The notes beneath the pieces are model-generated. The model searched no databases. It worked only from the letters and a program-made list of their open reading frames with translations, and was not told where the DNA came from. DNA of 64,000 nt from Trueperaceae bacterium (GTDB lineage Bacteria; Deinococcota; Deinococci; Deinococcales; Trueperaceae), in contig JAXHLW010000013.1 of NCBI GenBank assembly GCA_034521815.1, forward strand, positions 288,001 through 352,000, given 5' to 3'. Shown here piece by piece: positions 12,856 to 27,320 of the stretch (its first letter is position 1; each line of letters opens with the position of its first letter). Made by a program: the position numbers and the translations under genes.

Positions 12856-14052
12856 TCAGTCGTCGCTTGACGGCACGCCGGGCTTCTGGCGGCGCGTCCA
12901 GGTGGCGGTGGCGGGGATCTTGGCGCGGTCGGCGCGGTGGGCGTACTTGCGGGCGACGCTGGTGACCTCTTCGAGCAGGCCGGCTTCGAGGGTGGTGGGC
13001 TCCAGGCCGAGGTCGAGGAACAGGTCGTTCTTGACGTGGAGGTCGTTCTCGCTGTCTTCGTTGCGGGGGTTGTCGACGTGGGCGACGTCGGCGCCGGCGA
13101 TGTCGGCGACGATCTTGGCGAGGTCGCGGACGCGGTGGGTTTCGGTCATCTGGTTGAGGATCTTGACGCGTTCGCCGCGCTCGGGTGGGTTTTCGAGGGC
13201 GAGCTGGATGCAGCGGACGGTGTCTTGGATGTGGATGAAGGCGCGGGTCTGTCCGCCGGTGCCGTGGACGGTGAGGGGGTAGCCGACGGCGGCTTGCATG
13301 AGGAAGCGGTTGAGGACGGTGCCGTAGTCGCCGTCGTAGTCGAAGCGGTTGACGAGGCGTTCGTCCTGGTCGGTCTCGCTCGTGTGGGTGCCCCAGACGA
13401 TGCCTTGGTGGAGGTCGGTGATGCGGAGGTGGTCGTTCTTGGCGTAGTACGCGAAGAACAGCTGGTCTTGGGTCTTGGTCATGTGGTAGATCGACCCGGG
13501 GTTGGCGGGGTAGAGGATCTCTTGGCGGACGGTGGTGCCGTCGTCGGTGGTGACGTCGACGGGGAGGTAGCCTTCGGGGATCTTCATGCCGGCGGTGCCG
13601 TAGCCGTAGACGCCCATGGTGCCGAGGTGGGCGAGGTGGACGTCGAGGCCGGATTCGACGATCGCGGCGAGCACGTTGTGGGTGGCGTTCAAGTTGTTGT
13701 CGACGGTGTAGCGCTTGTGGGCGCTGCTTTTCATGCTGTAGGGCGCGGCGCGTTGTTCGGCGAAGTGGACGATGGCGTCGGGCTTCTCGTCTTGGATGAG
13801 GGTGAGCAGGCGGTGGTAGTTCTTGGCGACGTCGAGGCGTTCGTAGCGGATGTCGCGTCCGGAGACTTCTTTCCACGCCTTCTGGCGGGTGCCCATGTGT
13901 TGGATGGGGGTGAGGCTGCCGGCTTCGAGCTCGTTGTCGATGTTGCGGCGGCTCAGGTTGTCGACGATGGTGACGTCGTGGCCGAGGGCGCTGAGGTGCA
14001 GGCTGGTGGGCCAGCCGCAGAAACCGTCGCCGCCGAGGATGAAGACCTTCAT
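12856..14052 (-). CDS. sqdB: UDP-sulfoquinovose synthase
   Basis: LGGDGFCGWPTSLHLS, HFAEQRAAPYSMKS, HLGTMGVYGY, RITDLHQGIVWG, NRFDYDGDYGTVLNRF. Confidence 0.95.
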   Translation of the reverse strand: MKVFILGGDGFCGWPTSLHLSALGHDVTIVDNLSRRNIDNELEAGSLTPIQHMGTRQKAWKEVSGRDIRYERLDVAKNYHRLLTLIQDEKPDAIVHFAEQRAAPYSMKSSAHKRYTVDNNLNATHNVLAAIVESGLDVHLAHLGTMGVYGYGTAGMKIPEGYLPVDVTTDDGTTVRQEILYPANPGSIYHMTKTQDQLFFAYYAKNDHLRITDLHQGIVWGTHTSETDQDERLVNRFDYDGDYGTVLNRFLMQAAVGYPLTVHGTGGQTRAFIHIQDTVRCIQLALENPPERGERVKILNQMTETHRVRDLAKIVADIAGADVAHVDNPRNEDSENDLHVKNDLFLDLGLEPTTLEAGLLEEVTSVARKYAHRADRAKIPATATWTRRQKPGVPSSDD

Positions 14053-14137
14053 TCGGACCTCCGAGGGAAGTGGAGATGCCGCGAGGACGCGCGCTGCGCC
14101 CGCGGAAACGACCGACTGTACCACCGCTCGACCCGGC

Positions 14138-15370
14138 TCAGGACTCGCCTTTGGGCCCAAGCCGGAACCGTCGCCGCCACGCTCGCAAGCGGCGCTGGAG
14201 CCACCGGCGCCGGTACGGATCGGCCCCCGCCCTCCACTCGCCGCTCTTCACGAACGAGCCGATCACGATCGACGCGATGAAGAACGGATGGAGCACCGCC
14301 CAGGCAGCCAGACCCGGACCCACCAGGTCGTCCCGGTCCAGCTGCCGCGCGCCGATCGCGACGCCGACCACCTCGATCCCGATCTCCGCCAGCCACAGCG
14401 CAGCCACCCACGGCGCCAGCTCCGGCACCGCCGGCGTGACGACGACGGCGGCCGAAAGCGCGACGGACTGGAACCCCAGCAAGGCGATCGAGGCGAGAAA
14501 CCCCGGGTGGTAGTGCATCGGATGGTGGTACCTCGACACCCAGCGCCGACGCTGCAGGTAGAACGCCCGCCAGCTGGACACCGGTTGCGTCAGCACCCGC
14601 GTCTCCGGGCGGCTCGCGAACACGATGCGGCTTCCGGGCAGCCGGCCGAGACGCTGCGTGAGCAGGTCCTCGTCGCCGCTCGGCGCACGACCGGTCGCGC
14701 CGAAGCCGCCGGCGGCCTCGAACGCGTCGCGACGGTACGCCTGGTTGTTGGCGCTCGACGCGAACTTCCAGCCGAACCTCGTGAGCGAGCGCGAGACCAA
14801 CATCAGCGACAGCCAGTCGATCGTCTCGAACCGATGCAGGAACCGATCCACCCCGCCCCGCCGGGTCGTCTCGACATAGCCGACGACCATCGTCACCCCC
14901 GGCGCGAAGTGCGCCACCATCCCCTCGAGCCAGCCGCTCGGGTAGCGACAGTCGGCGTCGCTGGTCACGATGATCTCGCCGCTCGAGGCGTCGATGCCGT
15001 GCCTCACGGCGTTCACTTTGGGGGCCAGCCGGCGGTCCGGCACCTCGACACGCACGCTTCGGATCCGGGGATCGCGAGCGGCCGCGGCCGCGATCACGTC
15101 GGGGGTGCCGTCGCTGGATCGATCGTCGACCACCACGAACTCGGCGTCACCGGGGTAGCTCTGCGCGGACAAGGACGCCAGGGTCGGCGCCAGATCGTGC
15201 TCCTCGTCGTGGGCGGGCACGATCACGCTCACCGAGGGTCGCCGGCTCACCAGGCGCTCCTCGCCGCGGCGGAACAGCCCGACGAACGCGAGGCCCATCA
15301 GTCCCACGTAGGGAAGGGCGAGAGCGTAAAGAACGACGACGAACGCAGCGAGCAAAGCGACGACCTCCAA
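14138..15370 (-). CDS. GT2 membrane glycosyltransferase
   Basis: SVIVPAHDEE, VVDDRSSDGT, TSDADC, SGDEDLL, QRRRW motif, flanking TM helices. Start (TTG 15370) is uncertain. Confidence 0.85.
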   Translation of the reverse strand: MEVVALLAAFVVVLYALALPYVGLMGLAFVGLFRRGEERLVSRRPSVSVIVPAHDEEHDLAPTLASLSAQSYPGDAEFVVVDDRSSDGTPDVIAAAAARDPRIRSVRVEVPDRRLAPKVNAVRHGIDASSGEIIVTSDADCRYPSGWLEGMVAHFAPGVTMVVGYVETTRRGGVDRFLHRFETIDWLSLMLVSRSLTRFGWKFASSANNQAYRRDAFEAAGGFGATGRAPSGDEDLLTQRLGRLPGSRIVFASRPETRVLTQPVSSWRAFYLQRRRWVSRYHHPMHYHPGFLASIALLGFQSVALSAAVVVTPAVPELAPWVAALWLAEIGIEVVGVAIGARQLDRDDLVGPGLAAWAVLHPFFIASIVIGSFVKSGEWRAGADPYRRRWLQRRLRAWRRRFRLGPKGES

Positions 15371-23924: not shown

Positions 23925-24083
23925 TCGGGGACCTCCTGGCTGGAATGGTACCACCTGTTTTCGGGACGTTTGGGAACGGGCCGACAGGCTCGGAGATGAG
24001 CTCGGCGGCGCCGCTCCGGAAGGGCCTTCGGGGCTCTGGCCACCCGCTCTCCGGCGGGCCGCGGAAGCGGTCTCGCGGAGTCG

Positions 24084-24112
24084 TTGACACCCCCTGGGGC
24101 CCGTGCTAGTCT
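24084..24112 (+). promoter_or_regulatory. sigma70-type promoter of the tRNA-tuf operon
   Basis: TTGACA-17 nt-TAGTCT with an extended -10 TG. Confidence 0.8.
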
Positions 24113-24162
24113 CCTAGACCGGACGCGGAAAGAGGCGTCGTGACGTCACCGACGAGGAGGAT

Positions 24163-24238
24163 GCCACCCTAGCTCAACTGGTAGAGCATCCGACTTGTAA
24201 TCGGAAGGTTGTCGGTTCGATTCCGATGGGTGGCTCCA
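24163..24238 (+). tRNA. tRNA-Thr(TGT)
   Basis: Cloverleaf, loop CT-TGT-AA, GTTCGA T-loop, CCA end. Confidence 0.96.
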
Positions 24239-24277
24239 CGTTTGCGCCGCGCGCGTCCGATCGGCTTTGGGCCGCAT

Positions 24278-24363
24278 GGGTAGGTGCCCGAGTGGTTAAA
24301 GGGGACGGACTGTAAATCCGTTGGCTTATGCCTACGCTGGTTCGAATCCAGCCCTACCCACCA
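24278..24363 (+). tRNA. tRNA-Tyr(GTA)
   Basis: Loop CT-GTA-AA, long variable arm, CCA end. Confidence 0.96.
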
Positions 24364-24447
24364 CGCTGGAAGCCGGTCACGCCTCGAGCCGGTCCGCGGC
24401 CGTTCCGCGGGTTTTCGATCCGGGTCAGGGGCCCTCGCTCCGACCTC

Positions 24448-24523
<76 letters not shown>

Positions 24524-24571
24524 GGCGTCCGTGGCCCCATCGGCTCAGGACGCGATCCCGGGTCCAGGTAG

Positions 24572-24646
<75 letters not shown>

Positions 24647-24766
24647 AATCCCAGGCCCCGTAGAACGACGCGATCCGTCGGAGCACGTCCCGCGGATCGT
24701 GACTCGTCTGTCGCCGCGGCGGGCCCTACACCCTCCCGCACGGCGCGAAGGAAAGGACCAGACACC

Positions 24767-25984
24767 ATGGCGAAAGCTACGTTCAACCGTACGAAGCCGC
24801 ATGTGAATGTTGGGACGATTGGGCATGTGGATCATGGGAAGACGACGTTGACGGCGGCGATTACGTTTGCTGCTGCGGCGATGGATCCGTCGGCGACGAC
24901 GATGTCGTATGACCAGATCGATAAGGCGCCGGAGGAGAAGGCGCGTGGGATTACGATTAATACGTCGCATGTGGAGTATCAGACGGAGTCGCGTCATTAC
25001 AGTCATGTGGATTGTCCGGGGCATGCGGATTATGTGAAGAACATGATTACGGGTGCTGCGCAGATGGATGGTGCGGTGTTGGTGGTGTCGGCGGCGGATG
25101 GTCCGATGCCGCAGACGCGTGAGCACATTTTGTTGGCTCGGCAGGTGGGGGTTCCTTACATTTCCGTGTTTTTGAACAAGGTGGACATGGTGGATGATGA
25201 GGAGCTTTTGGAGCTTGTGGAGATGGAGGTTCGTGAGCTTTTGTCGTCTTACGAGTTTCCTGGGGATGATGTGCCTGTGGTGTCTGGGTCTGCGTTGAAG
25301 GCGTTGGAGGCGTTGTCGGCGAATCCGAATGTGCAGCGTGGTGAGGATGCGTGGGTGGATAAGGTTTGGGAGCTTTTGGATGCGGTGGATGCGTATATTC
25401 CGACGCCTGAGCGGGATGTGGATAAGCCGTTTTTGATGCCTGTCGAGGATGTGTTCACGATTACGGGTCGTGGGACGGTGGCGACGGGTCGTGTTGAGCG
25501 GGGTGTTGTGAAGACGGGGGATGAGGTGGAGGTTGTTGGTCTTTCGAATACGCGGAAGACGGTTGTGACGGGTGTGGAGATGCATCGGAAGACGTTGGAT
25601 AGTGGGATGGCTGGGGATAATGTCGGGGTTTTGCTTCGTGGTGTGGCGCGGGATGATATCGAGCGTGGGCAGGTGCTTGCGAAGCCGGGTTCGATTACGC
25701 CGCATACGAGGTTTTCTGGGAGTGTGTACATTTTGAGGAAGGAGGAGGGGGGGCGTCATTCGGCGTTTTTTGCGGGGTATCGTCCTCAGTTTTACTTTCG
25801 GACGACGGATGTGACGGGGGTTTGTACGTTGCCGTCGGATGTGGAGATGGTGATGCCGGGGGATAATGTGGAGTTGTCGGTGGAGTTGATCAAGCCGATT
25901 GCGATGGAGGAGGGTCTTCGCTTCGCGATTCGTGAGGGTGGTCGTACGGTGGGTGCGGGCGTCGTGACGGGAATCCAGGAGTAG
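24767..25984 (+). CDS. tuf: elongation factor Tu
   Basis: [44 protein letters not shown]. Confidence 0.99.
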
Positions 25985-26359
25985 GCGCTTCACAGGTCCG
26001 CGGGCTCACGCCGCCGGCGGCCTGCGAACGGACGGTTTCCGGACGTGACACGTCCGGTCCGTCCGTCTGCTATCCTGCTCAGGTTGCACCGCCGCGATGC
26101 GGACCGGCGCACTGCCGCGGAGCCTGCGCGGGGCTGTTCGATCACAGGACCGTTCCGCTCGAAGACCCGGCCGCTCGAAGGCCGTCCGCTCCAAACCACC
26201 GCGCTCGCGGGCGCGATCGCACCCCTGACGGCGTCTCGTCCGAACGACCCTCGTGGAATCGCACGACCGAACGAGCACGACCGCACGAACCACGACGAGC
26301 CACGGAACGTACGATGCAAGGCGCTACGGAGGAAGGCACCACGGAAACGGGAGACCATC

Positions 26360-26524
26360 ATGGCGAGTGACGTCCGCATCAAGCTTCTGCTCGAGTGCAC
26401 CGAGTGCAAGCGTCGAAACTACGCGACGAACAAGAATCGGCGCAACACCACGACCAAGCTCGAGCTGAGCAAGTACTGCCCCTGGGACCGCAAGCACACC
26501 AAGCACCGTGAAGTGAAGGTGTGA
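26360..26524 (+). CDS. rpmG: 50S ribosomal protein L33
   Basis: [20 protein letters not shown]...[17 protein letters not shown]. Confidence 0.96.
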
Positions 26525-26527
26525 GGC

Positions 26528-26707
26528 GTGAAGACGATCATGCAGTACCTCCGCAACTCCCGCGCCGAGCTCGGACGGGTCACCTGGCCCACCCGCAGCG
26601 AGGTGATTCAGTCCACCCAGGCGACGCTCCTGTTCGTGCTGATCACGGTCGCCTTCTTGCTGGTCGCCGACACGACGCTCGGCAACCTCATCGGCCTGCT
26701 CACCTGA
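26528..26707 (+). CDS. secE: preprotein translocase subunit SecE
   Basis: Translated by hand: [30 protein letters not shown]+TM; lies between rpmG and nusG; not in the ORF track (59 aa). Confidence 0.93.
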
Positions 26708-26762
26708 CCGTTTCTTCGTCGACCCCACCGTGGGGCGTTCGGCCCCAGGAGGACCGAGGCGC

Positions 26763-27320
26763 ATGAGCATCGAATGGTACGCCGTCCACACGTACGTGGG
26801 ACACGAGGACAAGGTCAAGGAGAACATCACGGGACGGGCGCGCACGCTCGGGATCTCGGATATGATCTACCAGGTCGTCGTTCCCAGCGAGGAGACGGTG
26901 GAGCACGCCCCGGGCGGCAAGCGCGAGGTCGTCAAGCGCAAGCTGTTTCCCGGGTACATCTTCGTGCAGATGGACCTCGGCGACAATCCCGACGAGCCCA
27001 ACGAAGCGTGGGAGGTCGTGCGCTACACGCCGGGCGTCACCGGCTTCGTCGGCACGTCCACGCACGCGGTGCCCCTCTCGCCCGACGAGGAGCTGCGCAT
27101 GCTGGGCACGCTGGGCATCACCGGCTCGAAGGAGGCCCCGAAGATCAAGGTCACCTTCCATGTCGGCGACATGGTGCAGGTCACCTCGGGCCCGTTCGCC
27201 GACTTCACCGGCGTCGTCTCGGAAGTCAACCCCGATCGCGGCACCCTCAAGGTGCTCGTCTCGATCTTCGGGCGGGAGACCCCCGTCGAACTCGACTTCG
27301 CGCAGGTCGTCAAGAGCTGA
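26763..27320 (+). CDS. nusG: transcription termination/antitermination factor NusG
   Basis: [48 protein letters not shown]. Confidence 0.97.

Follow-up and report, generated by a model that had tools for sequence, protein, structure and literature searches.

A G/T bias on the sense strand of the homogenised tuf and recA gene pairs of several Trueperaceae

Why should a tuf gene in a GC-rich bacterium end its codons almost only in G or T, when the other presumed highly expressed genes around it end theirs in C? The question is raised by a 64,000-nucleotide stretch of a Trueperaceae genome (assembly GCA_034521815.1, contig JAXHLW010000013.1, positions 288,001 to 352,000 of the forward strand), called the window below; bare coordinates are positions in it, and other loci carry the labels of their genome and contig, the genome of the window being G000. 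The first tuf copy (tuf1), identified by Pfam and by BLASTN of the copies, lies on the + strand at 24767-25984 and encodes elongation factor Tu (EF-Tu) in 405 codons plus a stop. An earlier reading of the same DNA, the original prediction, had attributed the bias to a strand-specific mutational process acting on the segment shared between recombining tuf copies.

The encoded protein of 405 residues is free of stops and matches the Pfam domains GTP_EFTU, D2 and D3 (E-values 2.7e-66, 9.7e-21 and 1.4e-38). Its codons have third-position fractions of.00 for A,.06 for C,.59 for G and.34 for T, confirming that the codons end almost only in G or T. Skew is strong in the interior, codons 12-382 (24800-25915, + strand), where codon counts give 0 A, 17 C, 225 G and 129 T at third positions; this segment holds 193 A, 174 C, 450 G and 299 T in all, for a GC content of.559, a GC skew of +.442 and a G+T fraction of.671, and the predicted count of 5 C in the 60 nucleotides at 25561-25620 is exact. 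The genome reference comprises 1410 open reading frames (ORFs; 2.63-Mb genome, 71% GC), with third-position fractions of.482 +/-.050 for C (C3),.405 +/-.052 for G (G3) and.064 +/-.025 for T (T3), so that tuf lies about 8.5 standard deviations (SD) low in C3 and about 11 SD high in T3. Phenylalanine is encoded by 9 TTT and 3 TTC (98% TTC in the reference set), isoleucine by 13 ATT and 4 ATC, aspartate by 26 GAT and 2 GAC, leucine by 18 TTG and 8 CTT with no CTG or CTC (59% CTG in the reference set), and threonine by 32 ACG with no ACC or ACT.

Loss of C, as originally proposed, is half of the effect. Low C3 is certainly part of it, but A is depleted equally strongly: A-ending codons number 2 of 405, where the fraction of.03 seen in other highly expressed genes would predict about 12 (Poisson p = 5e-4). 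At four-fold sites, moreover, the lost C is swapped mainly for G. Relative to the reference set, the odds of C against G in tuf are about 28-fold lower and those of C against T 50-100-fold lower. Because C and A are both depleted, the equilibrium skew of the sense strand runs along a keto (G, T) versus amino (A, C) axis. First and second codon positions of the most skewed orthologs shift as well, with G1, G2 and T1 up and A1, A2 and C1 down (the rise of T1 mostly through leucine CTN to TTG), which is suggestive of pressure at the level of DNA, although it is confounded with genome GC and shared ancestry. A 482-residue open frame runs antisense over the entire gene (24545-25993, - strand); it is not evidence of a gene, as the A-poor sense strand leaves few stop codons opposite.

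The bias is sharply local. The flanks have GC skews of.000 (24000-24766) and -.074 (25985-26800) at a GC content of.66, and seven genes of the window that we presume, by assumption, to be highly expressed are C-ending as the original prediction had it (C3 of.52 for NusG,.52 for L11,.51 for L1,.38 for L10,.54 for RpoB,.53 for GroES and.59 for GroEL). Codon counts show weaker skew at both ends of the gene: 2 of the first 11 codons (24767-24799, + strand) and 5 of the last 23 (25916-25984, + strand) end in C, against 17 of the 371 between them (Fisher p =.002). The proposal that the ends return to normal usage therefore holds insofar as they are less skewed, but they are not fully normal.

The predicted duplication and homogenisation of tuf are borne out by a second copy (tuf2) outside the window, behind fusA at G000:C13:518418-519635. 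The two copies are identical at 1203 of 1219 positions (98.7%, BLASTN), and the block of identity runs exactly from base -1 to the stop. The assembly of tuf2 contains a +1 and a -1 indel about 200 nucleotides apart, the second in a run of G; at the site of the first, the loose end of a public contig at window position 25550 has an in-frame allele, suggesting that the frameshifts are probably consensus errors from mixed alleles and not marks of a pseudogene. Pieces of tuf are also present in the public RNA libraries X12 and X15, whose contigs carry no expression-level information.

The same genome has two recA genes (on contigs C1 and C13) with a core of about 985 nucleotides that is 98.7% identical, joined to N- and C-terminal tails that are unrelated. 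This architecture recurs in G005, G019, G020 and G013. Across 7 genomes, all 12 pairs have within-genome identity blocks of 98.7-100%, with recA cores of 965-991 nucleotides, while DNA identity is 86-96% within the genus and 74-89% between genera. By tblastx of the flanks, recA locus I and recA locus II are each orthologous across G000, G005, G019 and G020, and the flanks of locus I are also common to G003, G013 and G030, a genome whose single recA is syntenic with it. As the flanks are orthologous across genera, the duplication is old and the cores evolve in concert. Both pairs thus show concerted evolution: the tufA/tufB paralogs of one genome resemble each other more than orthologs from different genomes do, their identity stopping at the edge of the block, and the recA cores are homogenised in each genome between orthologous flanks. 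These are ancient paralog pairs that gene conversion keeps about 99% identical within each genome.

In both genes the skew belongs to the shared tract. The C-terminal recA tails have a C3 of.41 and a G3 of.43 (8 tails of the 4 skewed genomes, 198 codons; N-terminal tails were left out because their start codons are uncertain, and the tails of G013 because it serves as an unskewed control), whereas the cores have a C3 of.165 (215 of 1303 codons) and a G3 of.675 (Fisher p = 1e-13). In the recA cores, compared with the reference set, the odds of C are about 7-fold lower against G and 7-9-fold lower against T, and the G:T ratio at four-fold sites, 135:17, is unchanged from the reference ratio of about 8:1. 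A profile was pooled over G000, G005, G019 and G020, the four skewed genomes among the five from which all tuf and recA copies were retrieved. In this profile C3 at the margins of the recA block is.42-.50 over the first 10 codons and.45-.60 over the last 15, and in tuf it is.10 over the first 10 codons and.28-.40 over the last 10. The skew is set in some 10-20 codons from the tract ends; the claim that it is tied to the segment shared between copies is upheld, with recA skewed only in the homogenised core and the skew nested inside the identity block.

Nothing else in the genome behaves in this way. Among 26,219 windows of 600 nucleotides, GC skew has a mean of.002 and an SD of.059, and its maxima,.487 and.494, are the two tuf copies. 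When the 3318 ORFs of at least 100 codons in G000 are ranked by G3+T3, pieces of tuf (.80-.88) and the recA copies (.73-.74) come out on top and the next real gene is at about.64, so that genome-wide only the two tuf and two recA genes stand out in third-position skew. A genome of a second genus, G020, was scanned over 2,519,400 of its 2,919,400 bases (positions 2,400,001-2,800,000 being absent, and 9,029 bases reading N). Its top four ORFs are again the two tuf (.92-.97) and two recA genes (.85), followed by.71 and.69, and the same four loci are its strongest GC-skew peaks (absolute values of.53-.58); one further window in that range (.56, 472601-477701) falls in a masked stretch of N. Free sites of the sense strand are thus depleted of C and A inside the homogenised tracts, and nowhere else in the genome.

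Next in the G3+T3 ranking is a PPK2-like gene (G000:C13:1514038-1514946) with a truncated copy of its N-terminal half at 1545267-1545713 (447 nucleotides, 94.6% identity). We considered it as a third converted pair and rejected it, as the duplicated half is not more skewed than the rest (C3 of.39 versus.30).

A repeat-associated process in general, as the original prediction had envisaged, is not what we find. No other repeat proved strongly skewed among the 97% identical tandem 8-kb duplications and haplotig-like small contigs of G000 and the insertion sequence (IS) copies of G020 (98-100% identity), and the homogenised tuf or recA pairs of some relatives (G013, G026, G033) are unskewed too. 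Recent repeats are without skew and old converted pairs carry it. The duplications in question (G000:C13:1667675-1683560, C12:16766-31987 and C13:961753-986044) are tandem or dispersed, 2-8 kb long, 96-98% identical and unskewed, as are the small contigs C6, C7 and C10, which repeat parts of C12 and C13; all of them look like strain haplotypes or redundancy of a metagenome-assembled genome (MAG). The multi-copy transposases of G020, an IS21-like element (C1:2398564-2400000) and a 406-residue protein in two identical copies (132248-133465 and 153862-155079), do lean slightly the same way, with a C3 of.27-.33 (genome norm.50) and a G3 of.51-.56 (genome norm.38); this may mark the beginnings of the process or simply reflect foreign codon usage.

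The tuf skew is common to at least 10 related genomes of several genera. Within the genus, C3 is.06 in G004,.03 in G005,.01 in G001 and.01 in G003 (355 codons); in other genera of the family it is.02 in G019, G020 and G016 (the last a fragment of 94 codons),.17 in G015 and.18 in G018; and in other families there is milder skew in G030 (.21), G031 (.16), G027 (.19) and G039 (.31). Unskewed tuf genes occur in G013 (.46), G017 (.34), G033 (.57), G025 (.59), G037 (.59), G026 and G034 (.71 in both) and in low-GC genomes; two matches to other GTPases, at about 30% identity, were dropped from this survey. The original prediction ascribed a milder G-ending bias to Thermus tuf; in the Thermaceae-like genus g17, C3 is.71. 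The skew is not a local, recent hypermutation but an old state, conserved over several genera.

It is recA that offers a contrast in copy number. The gene is single-copy in all 16 genomes of the other four families, and in the 11 high-GC genomes among them that were measured it is unskewed (C3 of.41-.62). These include G030, G027 and G031, in which the single recA is unskewed although the duplicated tuf is skewed. Two members of the family itself, G023 and G024, have one recA, with no fragments of a second copy and a C3 of.49-.51, whereas C3 is.09-.23 in the two-copy high-GC genomes G000, G005, G019, G020 and G016.

The distribution also follows the mismatch-repair genotype to a considerable extent, and the extreme form occurs only where NucS is present and MutS and MutL are absent. 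NucS of G000 (G000:C1:205974-206870) has both NucS_N and NucS_C domains. As this assembly is 83.5% complete, its own lack of MutS and MutL is weak evidence; the genus-wide result is stronger, with NucS in 11 of 11 genomes and MutL_C and MutS_I in 0 of 11. NucS is likewise present, and MutL_C and MutS_I were not found, in G012, G015, G016, G018, G019, G020 and G022-G024, while the MutL-bearing family members G011, G013, G014, G017 and G021 are without NucS. Among NucS-only genomes with a measured tuf, C3 is at most.18 in 11 of 11 and G3+T3 at least.82 in 10 of 11; in four MutL-bearing, NucS-less members of the family G3+T3 is.43-.51. The Deinococcus-like G033 and G025 have both systems and no tuf skew. 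G026 and G034 (genus g17, Thermaceae-like, 99-100% complete) gave no match to MutS_I, MutL_C or NucS_C, and may lack all known mismatch-repair systems; having neither system and no skew, they are compatible with the involvement of NucS set out below.

We lean, with slightly better than even confidence, towards a strand-asymmetric bias that would arise in the recombination intermediate between the copies and be sustained to equilibrium against the pressure for C-ending codons. The proposed strand-specific mutational process during recombination is in this respect strongly supported as a process linked to the tract, independent evidence coming from recA, the tails, the margins, the neighbouring genes, single-copy orthologs and a second genome; its specific form, C loss on single-stranded DNA (ssDNA), would have to be extended to adenine and is not favoured. 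The skew either follows the sense strand of the gene or arises on one copy and then spreads to the other by conversion.

How such a bias might come about is suggested by work on NucS in other organisms. According to a review, NucS prefers G-T, G-G and T-T mismatches and does not act on A-C, and homeologous recombination increases when it is lost (PMC8228993). In Mycobacterium smegmatis, incoming oligonucleotides persist if they form C-C, A-A, A-C, C-A, G-A or A-G mispairs and are rejected if they form G-G or G-T, with a patch of 5-6 bp (PMC11551744). Deletion of nucS in Haloferax is described as causing a severe defect in gene conversion (PMC11276520), and a 2026 preprint on Mycobacterium tuberculosis records T>C enrichment in paralogous regions and speculates that recombination-linked repair asymmetries could reshape the composition of paralogs (PMC13061034).

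The skewed genomes lack MutS and MutL and have a NucS that, elsewhere, rejects G-T, G-G and T-T and passes A-C, C-C and A-A; this specificity is drawn from archaeal and actinobacterial enzymes, and the activity of the Trueperaceae NucS is presumed. If the donor strand were usually of antisense polarity, as in gap filling opposite the sense strand of the recipient, transfer would become one-way: a donor allele would be transferred only where the recipient sense strand has A or C and the donor G or T, the reverse being rejected, and the sense strand would ratchet to G and T. That conversion in NucS-only bacteria passes only donor alleles making A/C-type mismatches, so that long-lived pairs ratchet to a G/T-only coding strand, strikes us as possible but doubtful, and NucS-filtered conversion taken on its own as the mechanism is speculative, deserving a tentative hearing at best. 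A bias in fixation is nevertheless favoured over deamination because the extreme skew is associated with NucS-only, MutS/MutL-less genomes; repair-filtered, strand-asymmetric conversion is the better match for the keto/amino axis and for a background lacking MutS and MutL, though it is still a hypothesis and one with exceptions.

Several observations weigh against a conversion bias of this kind. Strand polarity is assumed, sequence cannot tell which way the bias should run, and recA locus I is oriented head-on to replication where the others are co-directional. An equilibrium composition cannot separate fixation bias from mutation bias. Differences between the copies in the four skewed genomes comprise 19 C/G, 17 C/T, 11 A/G, 9 A/C, 7 G/T and 2 A/T together with 2 indels, a spectrum that no model cleanly explains and that in MAGs may include strain mixing. 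Some genomes do not fit the repair genotype: G027 and G031 have MutS and MutL, yet their tuf genes have a C3 of.16-.19 and a G3+T3 of.80-.83 (their weak "NucS" match is a UPF0102 protein), and G030, with both repair systems, has a tuf G3+T3 of.79. Others are homogenised and unskewed, namely the tuf and recA pairs of G013 (100% identical, C3 of.46 and.41), the tuf pair of G026 (99.9% identical, C3 of.71) and that of G033 (C3 of.57), which has both NucS and MutL. Conversely, G003 has a strongly skewed recA (C3 of.11) assembled in mid-contig, and of its second copy a 60-nucleotide fragment is all that was found. The association of NucS with skew within the family may reflect one or few evolutionary events (the trees are poorly resolved), and the recA contrast likewise is one of few events among related genomes that are not independent. 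All genomes of the order appear to carry tuf in duplicate, including G001, where a second fragment is present; tuf thus has no single-copy form in the order and no control for copy number.

Strain differences within tuf (24800-25950; public runs X1, X2, X12 and X15) consist for the most part of T>G (5-14 in each run), T>C (3-9) and G>T (4), which suggests that population variation, too, moves mainly between G and T. We also tried the idea that MutS misses C-C mismatches as an account of the moderate skew in G027 and G031, and rejected it, since skew is absent from G013, G017 and the Deinococcus-like genomes although MutS and MutL are present there.

The main rival is deamination of ssDNA in recombination intermediates, such as the displaced strand of a D-loop, which would turn C to U (read as T) and A to hypoxanthine (read as G) on the sense strand only and so bias mutation and not fixation. 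We regard it as unlikely, although several observations speak for it. It turns exactly the amino bases C and A into bases that read as keto, matching the depletion of both, and the codon counts agree with it, with CTG at 0 of 26 leucine codons against 18 TTG and with 75 T-ending against 18 C-ending two-fold pyrimidine codons. Restriction of the skew to the shared tract, some way in from its ends, would also fit, and a raised rate of C>T predicts a four-fold G:T ratio unchanged at equilibrium, just as in recA (135:17 versus about 8:1). However, C would have to be lost 28-100 times faster than in flanking, co-transcribed DNA. That is about the whole difference in deamination rate between single-stranded and double-stranded DNA, so that the strand would need to be single-stranded most of the time. 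Transitions, moreover, make up only 28 of the 65 between-copy differences, C/G being the commonest class, and deamination gives no reason why the extreme form should track the loss of MutS and MutL or why the pairs of G013, G026 and G033 are unskewed. It also needs the same unexplained strand polarity as filtering by NucS.

Two further explanations were rejected. Transcription-associated deamination of the non-template strand is contradicted by fusA, which ends 32 nucleotides 5' of tuf2 with a C3 of.52, and by the S10 gene directly 3' of it (C3 of.49), both inferred to be co-transcribed with tuf2, and by the recA tails (C3 of.41), all of them unskewed. An explanation by replication strand fails because the genomic skew is tiny, +/-.01-.04 per 20-50 kb versus.44-.58 in tuf and recA, and because recA locus I is head-on. 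Cumulative GC skew in G000 and G020 shows replication running in the direction of both tuf copies and of recA locus II but against that of recA locus I (G000 C13:1275596-1276714; G020 C1:835393-836478); a head-on orientation at this locus, the ancestral one, is unusual for a conserved gene.

Selection in these genes for a C-poor, G/T-rich coding strand, quite unlikely in our judgement, would have to act on tuf and recA specifically. Conceivable benefits include a less structured mRNA, avoidance of Rho or of an RNase that depends on C, a template strand poor in G that is well read after oxidative damage, and GT-rich DNA that pairs well with RecA and so keeps the copies identical. RecA reportedly prefers GT-rich ssDNA, a result of 1996 that is credited to Tracy and Kowalczykowski; the literature searched yielded no paper on bacterial gene conversion that deals with this preference. 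The conservation of the state across genera despite divergence at synonymous sites would suit selection, as would a uniform penalty on C against both G and T (about 7-9-fold in recA and 28-100-fold in tuf) and a choice among the non-C codons that looks tuned, with 32 ACG versus 0 ACT and 14 CGT versus 7 CGG. However, codon usage within the same recA mRNA is normal in the tails and at the outer codons of the shared block, including places where the protein is conserved; it is normal, too, in fusA and the S10 gene beside tuf2 and in the single-copy recA genes of relatives, even those with a skewed tuf. Other presumed highly expressed genes are C-ending, and selection at each silent site would have to outweigh the translational preference for C-ending codons in what is the cell's most abundant protein.

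Ordinary translational selection, by which G- and T-ending codons would simply be the optimal ones of the host, is very improbable, even though tuf is usually the most highly expressed gene and CGT and GGT are good codons in many bacteria. L11, L1, RpoB, GroEL, NusG and fusA use C-ending codons (C3 of.51-.59), the T-ending codons of Phe, Ile, Asp, His and Asn depend entirely on wobble pairing, and the skew stops inside the recA ORF. The original prediction had already set translational selection aside, and rightly so, for in tuf TTT, ATT, GAT and CAT displace the C-ending codons that make up 86-98% of usage in the reference set.

To a foreign origin of the island by horizontal gene transfer (HGT) from an organism with such codon usage, or to a chimeric assembly, we give next to no credence: the GC of tuf (.56) is below that of its flanks (.66) and the tuf2 assembly has two frameshifts, but the EF-Tu tree places 19 of 19 sequences of the order in one clade (support 100/99) with the families recovered and G000 next to its congener G004, the best of 600 matches listed in other bacteria (distant ones at 70-75% identity, which served as an outgroup panel) is 75% identical, 0 of 80 outgroup tuf genes exceed a G3+T3 of.75 against.93 here, the same pattern occurs in independent assemblies, single-contig genomes included, and public contigs span both borders of tuf (X15 record 17, 24492-24859; X2 record 28, 25922-26095; X1 record 7, 25954-26345), some of these runs possibly being the source sample. 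Both alternatives, raised as checks by the original prediction, are excluded by the tree and the border-spanning contigs.

A strand-asymmetric bias in conversion has partial counterparts in known systems. The tufA and tufB genes of Salmonella and E. coli evolve in concert by RecA-dependent gene conversion, according to Paulsson et al. 2017 (PMC5485169). The present pair resembles the enteric one in that one copy follows fusA and the other a tRNA cluster, and in that the copies are near-identical within a genome and diverged between genomes, with a block bounded by the coding sequence. In the window the cluster in question, found by ARAGORN on the + strand (24163..24646) and of normal composition, consists of tRNA-Thr(TGT), tRNA-Tyr(GTA), tRNA-Gly(CCC) and tRNA-Thr(GGT) directly 5' of tuf, a tufB-type context. 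Concerted evolution of tufA and tufB was reportedly also described by Abdulkarim and Hughes in 1996 and by Lathe and Bork in 2001. Unlike the enteric pair, the Trueperaceae tract has lost C and A on one strand, and the recA pair behaves alike; no strand-specific compositional effect is described for the enteric pair in the literature searched.

GC-biased gene conversion (gBGC), reportedly treated by Duret and Galtier 2009 and, for bacteria, by Lassalle et al. 2015, is similarly a fixation bias of the recombination heteroduplex that looks like selection at silent sites and overrides codon optimisation. But it favours G and C on both strands and raises GC, whereas here GC is.56 versus.66-.71, T3 is.34 and C3.06, and the effect is stranded. 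It was accordingly rejected as the identity of the tuf bias: the GC of the tract,.56, is below the.66 of the flanks, and C3 is.06 while G3 is.59. NucS/EndoMS repair in M. smegmatis shares the keto-versus-amino axis and the presence of NucS without MutS and MutL, and there, too, information from the incoming strand survives only in mismatches of A and C; that work (PMC11551744, PMC8228993) concerns replication errors and synthetic oligonucleotides, and no lasting compositional footprint in paralogs is reported in the literature searched. The GC or keto skew of replication strands enriches G and T on one strand, its classical cause being deamination of exposed ssDNA, but it amounts to +/-.01-.04 compared with.44-.58 here, where recA locus I is skewed on the lagging strand. 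Fungal repeat-induced point mutation (RIP) likewise aims a change of composition at duplicated DNA, though it drives C>T on both strands and destroys genes, while in the present case the genes are intact and conserved and one strand is affected.

No description of such a skew or footprint turned up in the literature searched, subscription-only papers and supplements lying outside its coverage, and we take the pattern as pointing to a hitherto undescribed bias of bacterial gene conversion that affects one strand. Among the forces that shape genome composition, biased gene conversion is major and debated, and the only bacterial form recognised so far is a symmetric GC bias; the conversion-linked bias described here is stranded, lies on the keto/amino axis, reaches 8-11 SD in two essential genes and comes with internal controls in the form of tails, margins and single-copy orthologs. 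If the link to NucS holds, it would provide a natural read-out of non-canonical mismatch repair on recombination intermediates, of relevance to mycobacteria, Streptomyces and archaea. The blind spots of mismatch repair would then be written into the genome, strongly enough to prevail over codon optimisation in the cell's most highly expressed gene, and similar footprints would be predicted in converted paralogs of Actinobacteria and Archaea. As tuf and recA are common references for phylogeny and codon usage, silent sites (and slightly the protein as well) that are shaped non-adaptively in this clade would mislead codon-adaptation indices, estimates of synonymous divergence (dS) and detectors of HGT.

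Elsewhere in the window, an NAD-dependent epimerase gene (12856-14160, - strand; Pfam Epimerase / GDP_Man_Dehyd, SQD1-like by eye) has the opposite bias, with a C3 of.72 and a G3 of.17, which, the gene being on the - strand, appears as a G/T-rich island on the + strand with a GC skew of +.33. Similar C3-rich genes of G020 (.58-.69) are located in apparent defence or foreign islands.

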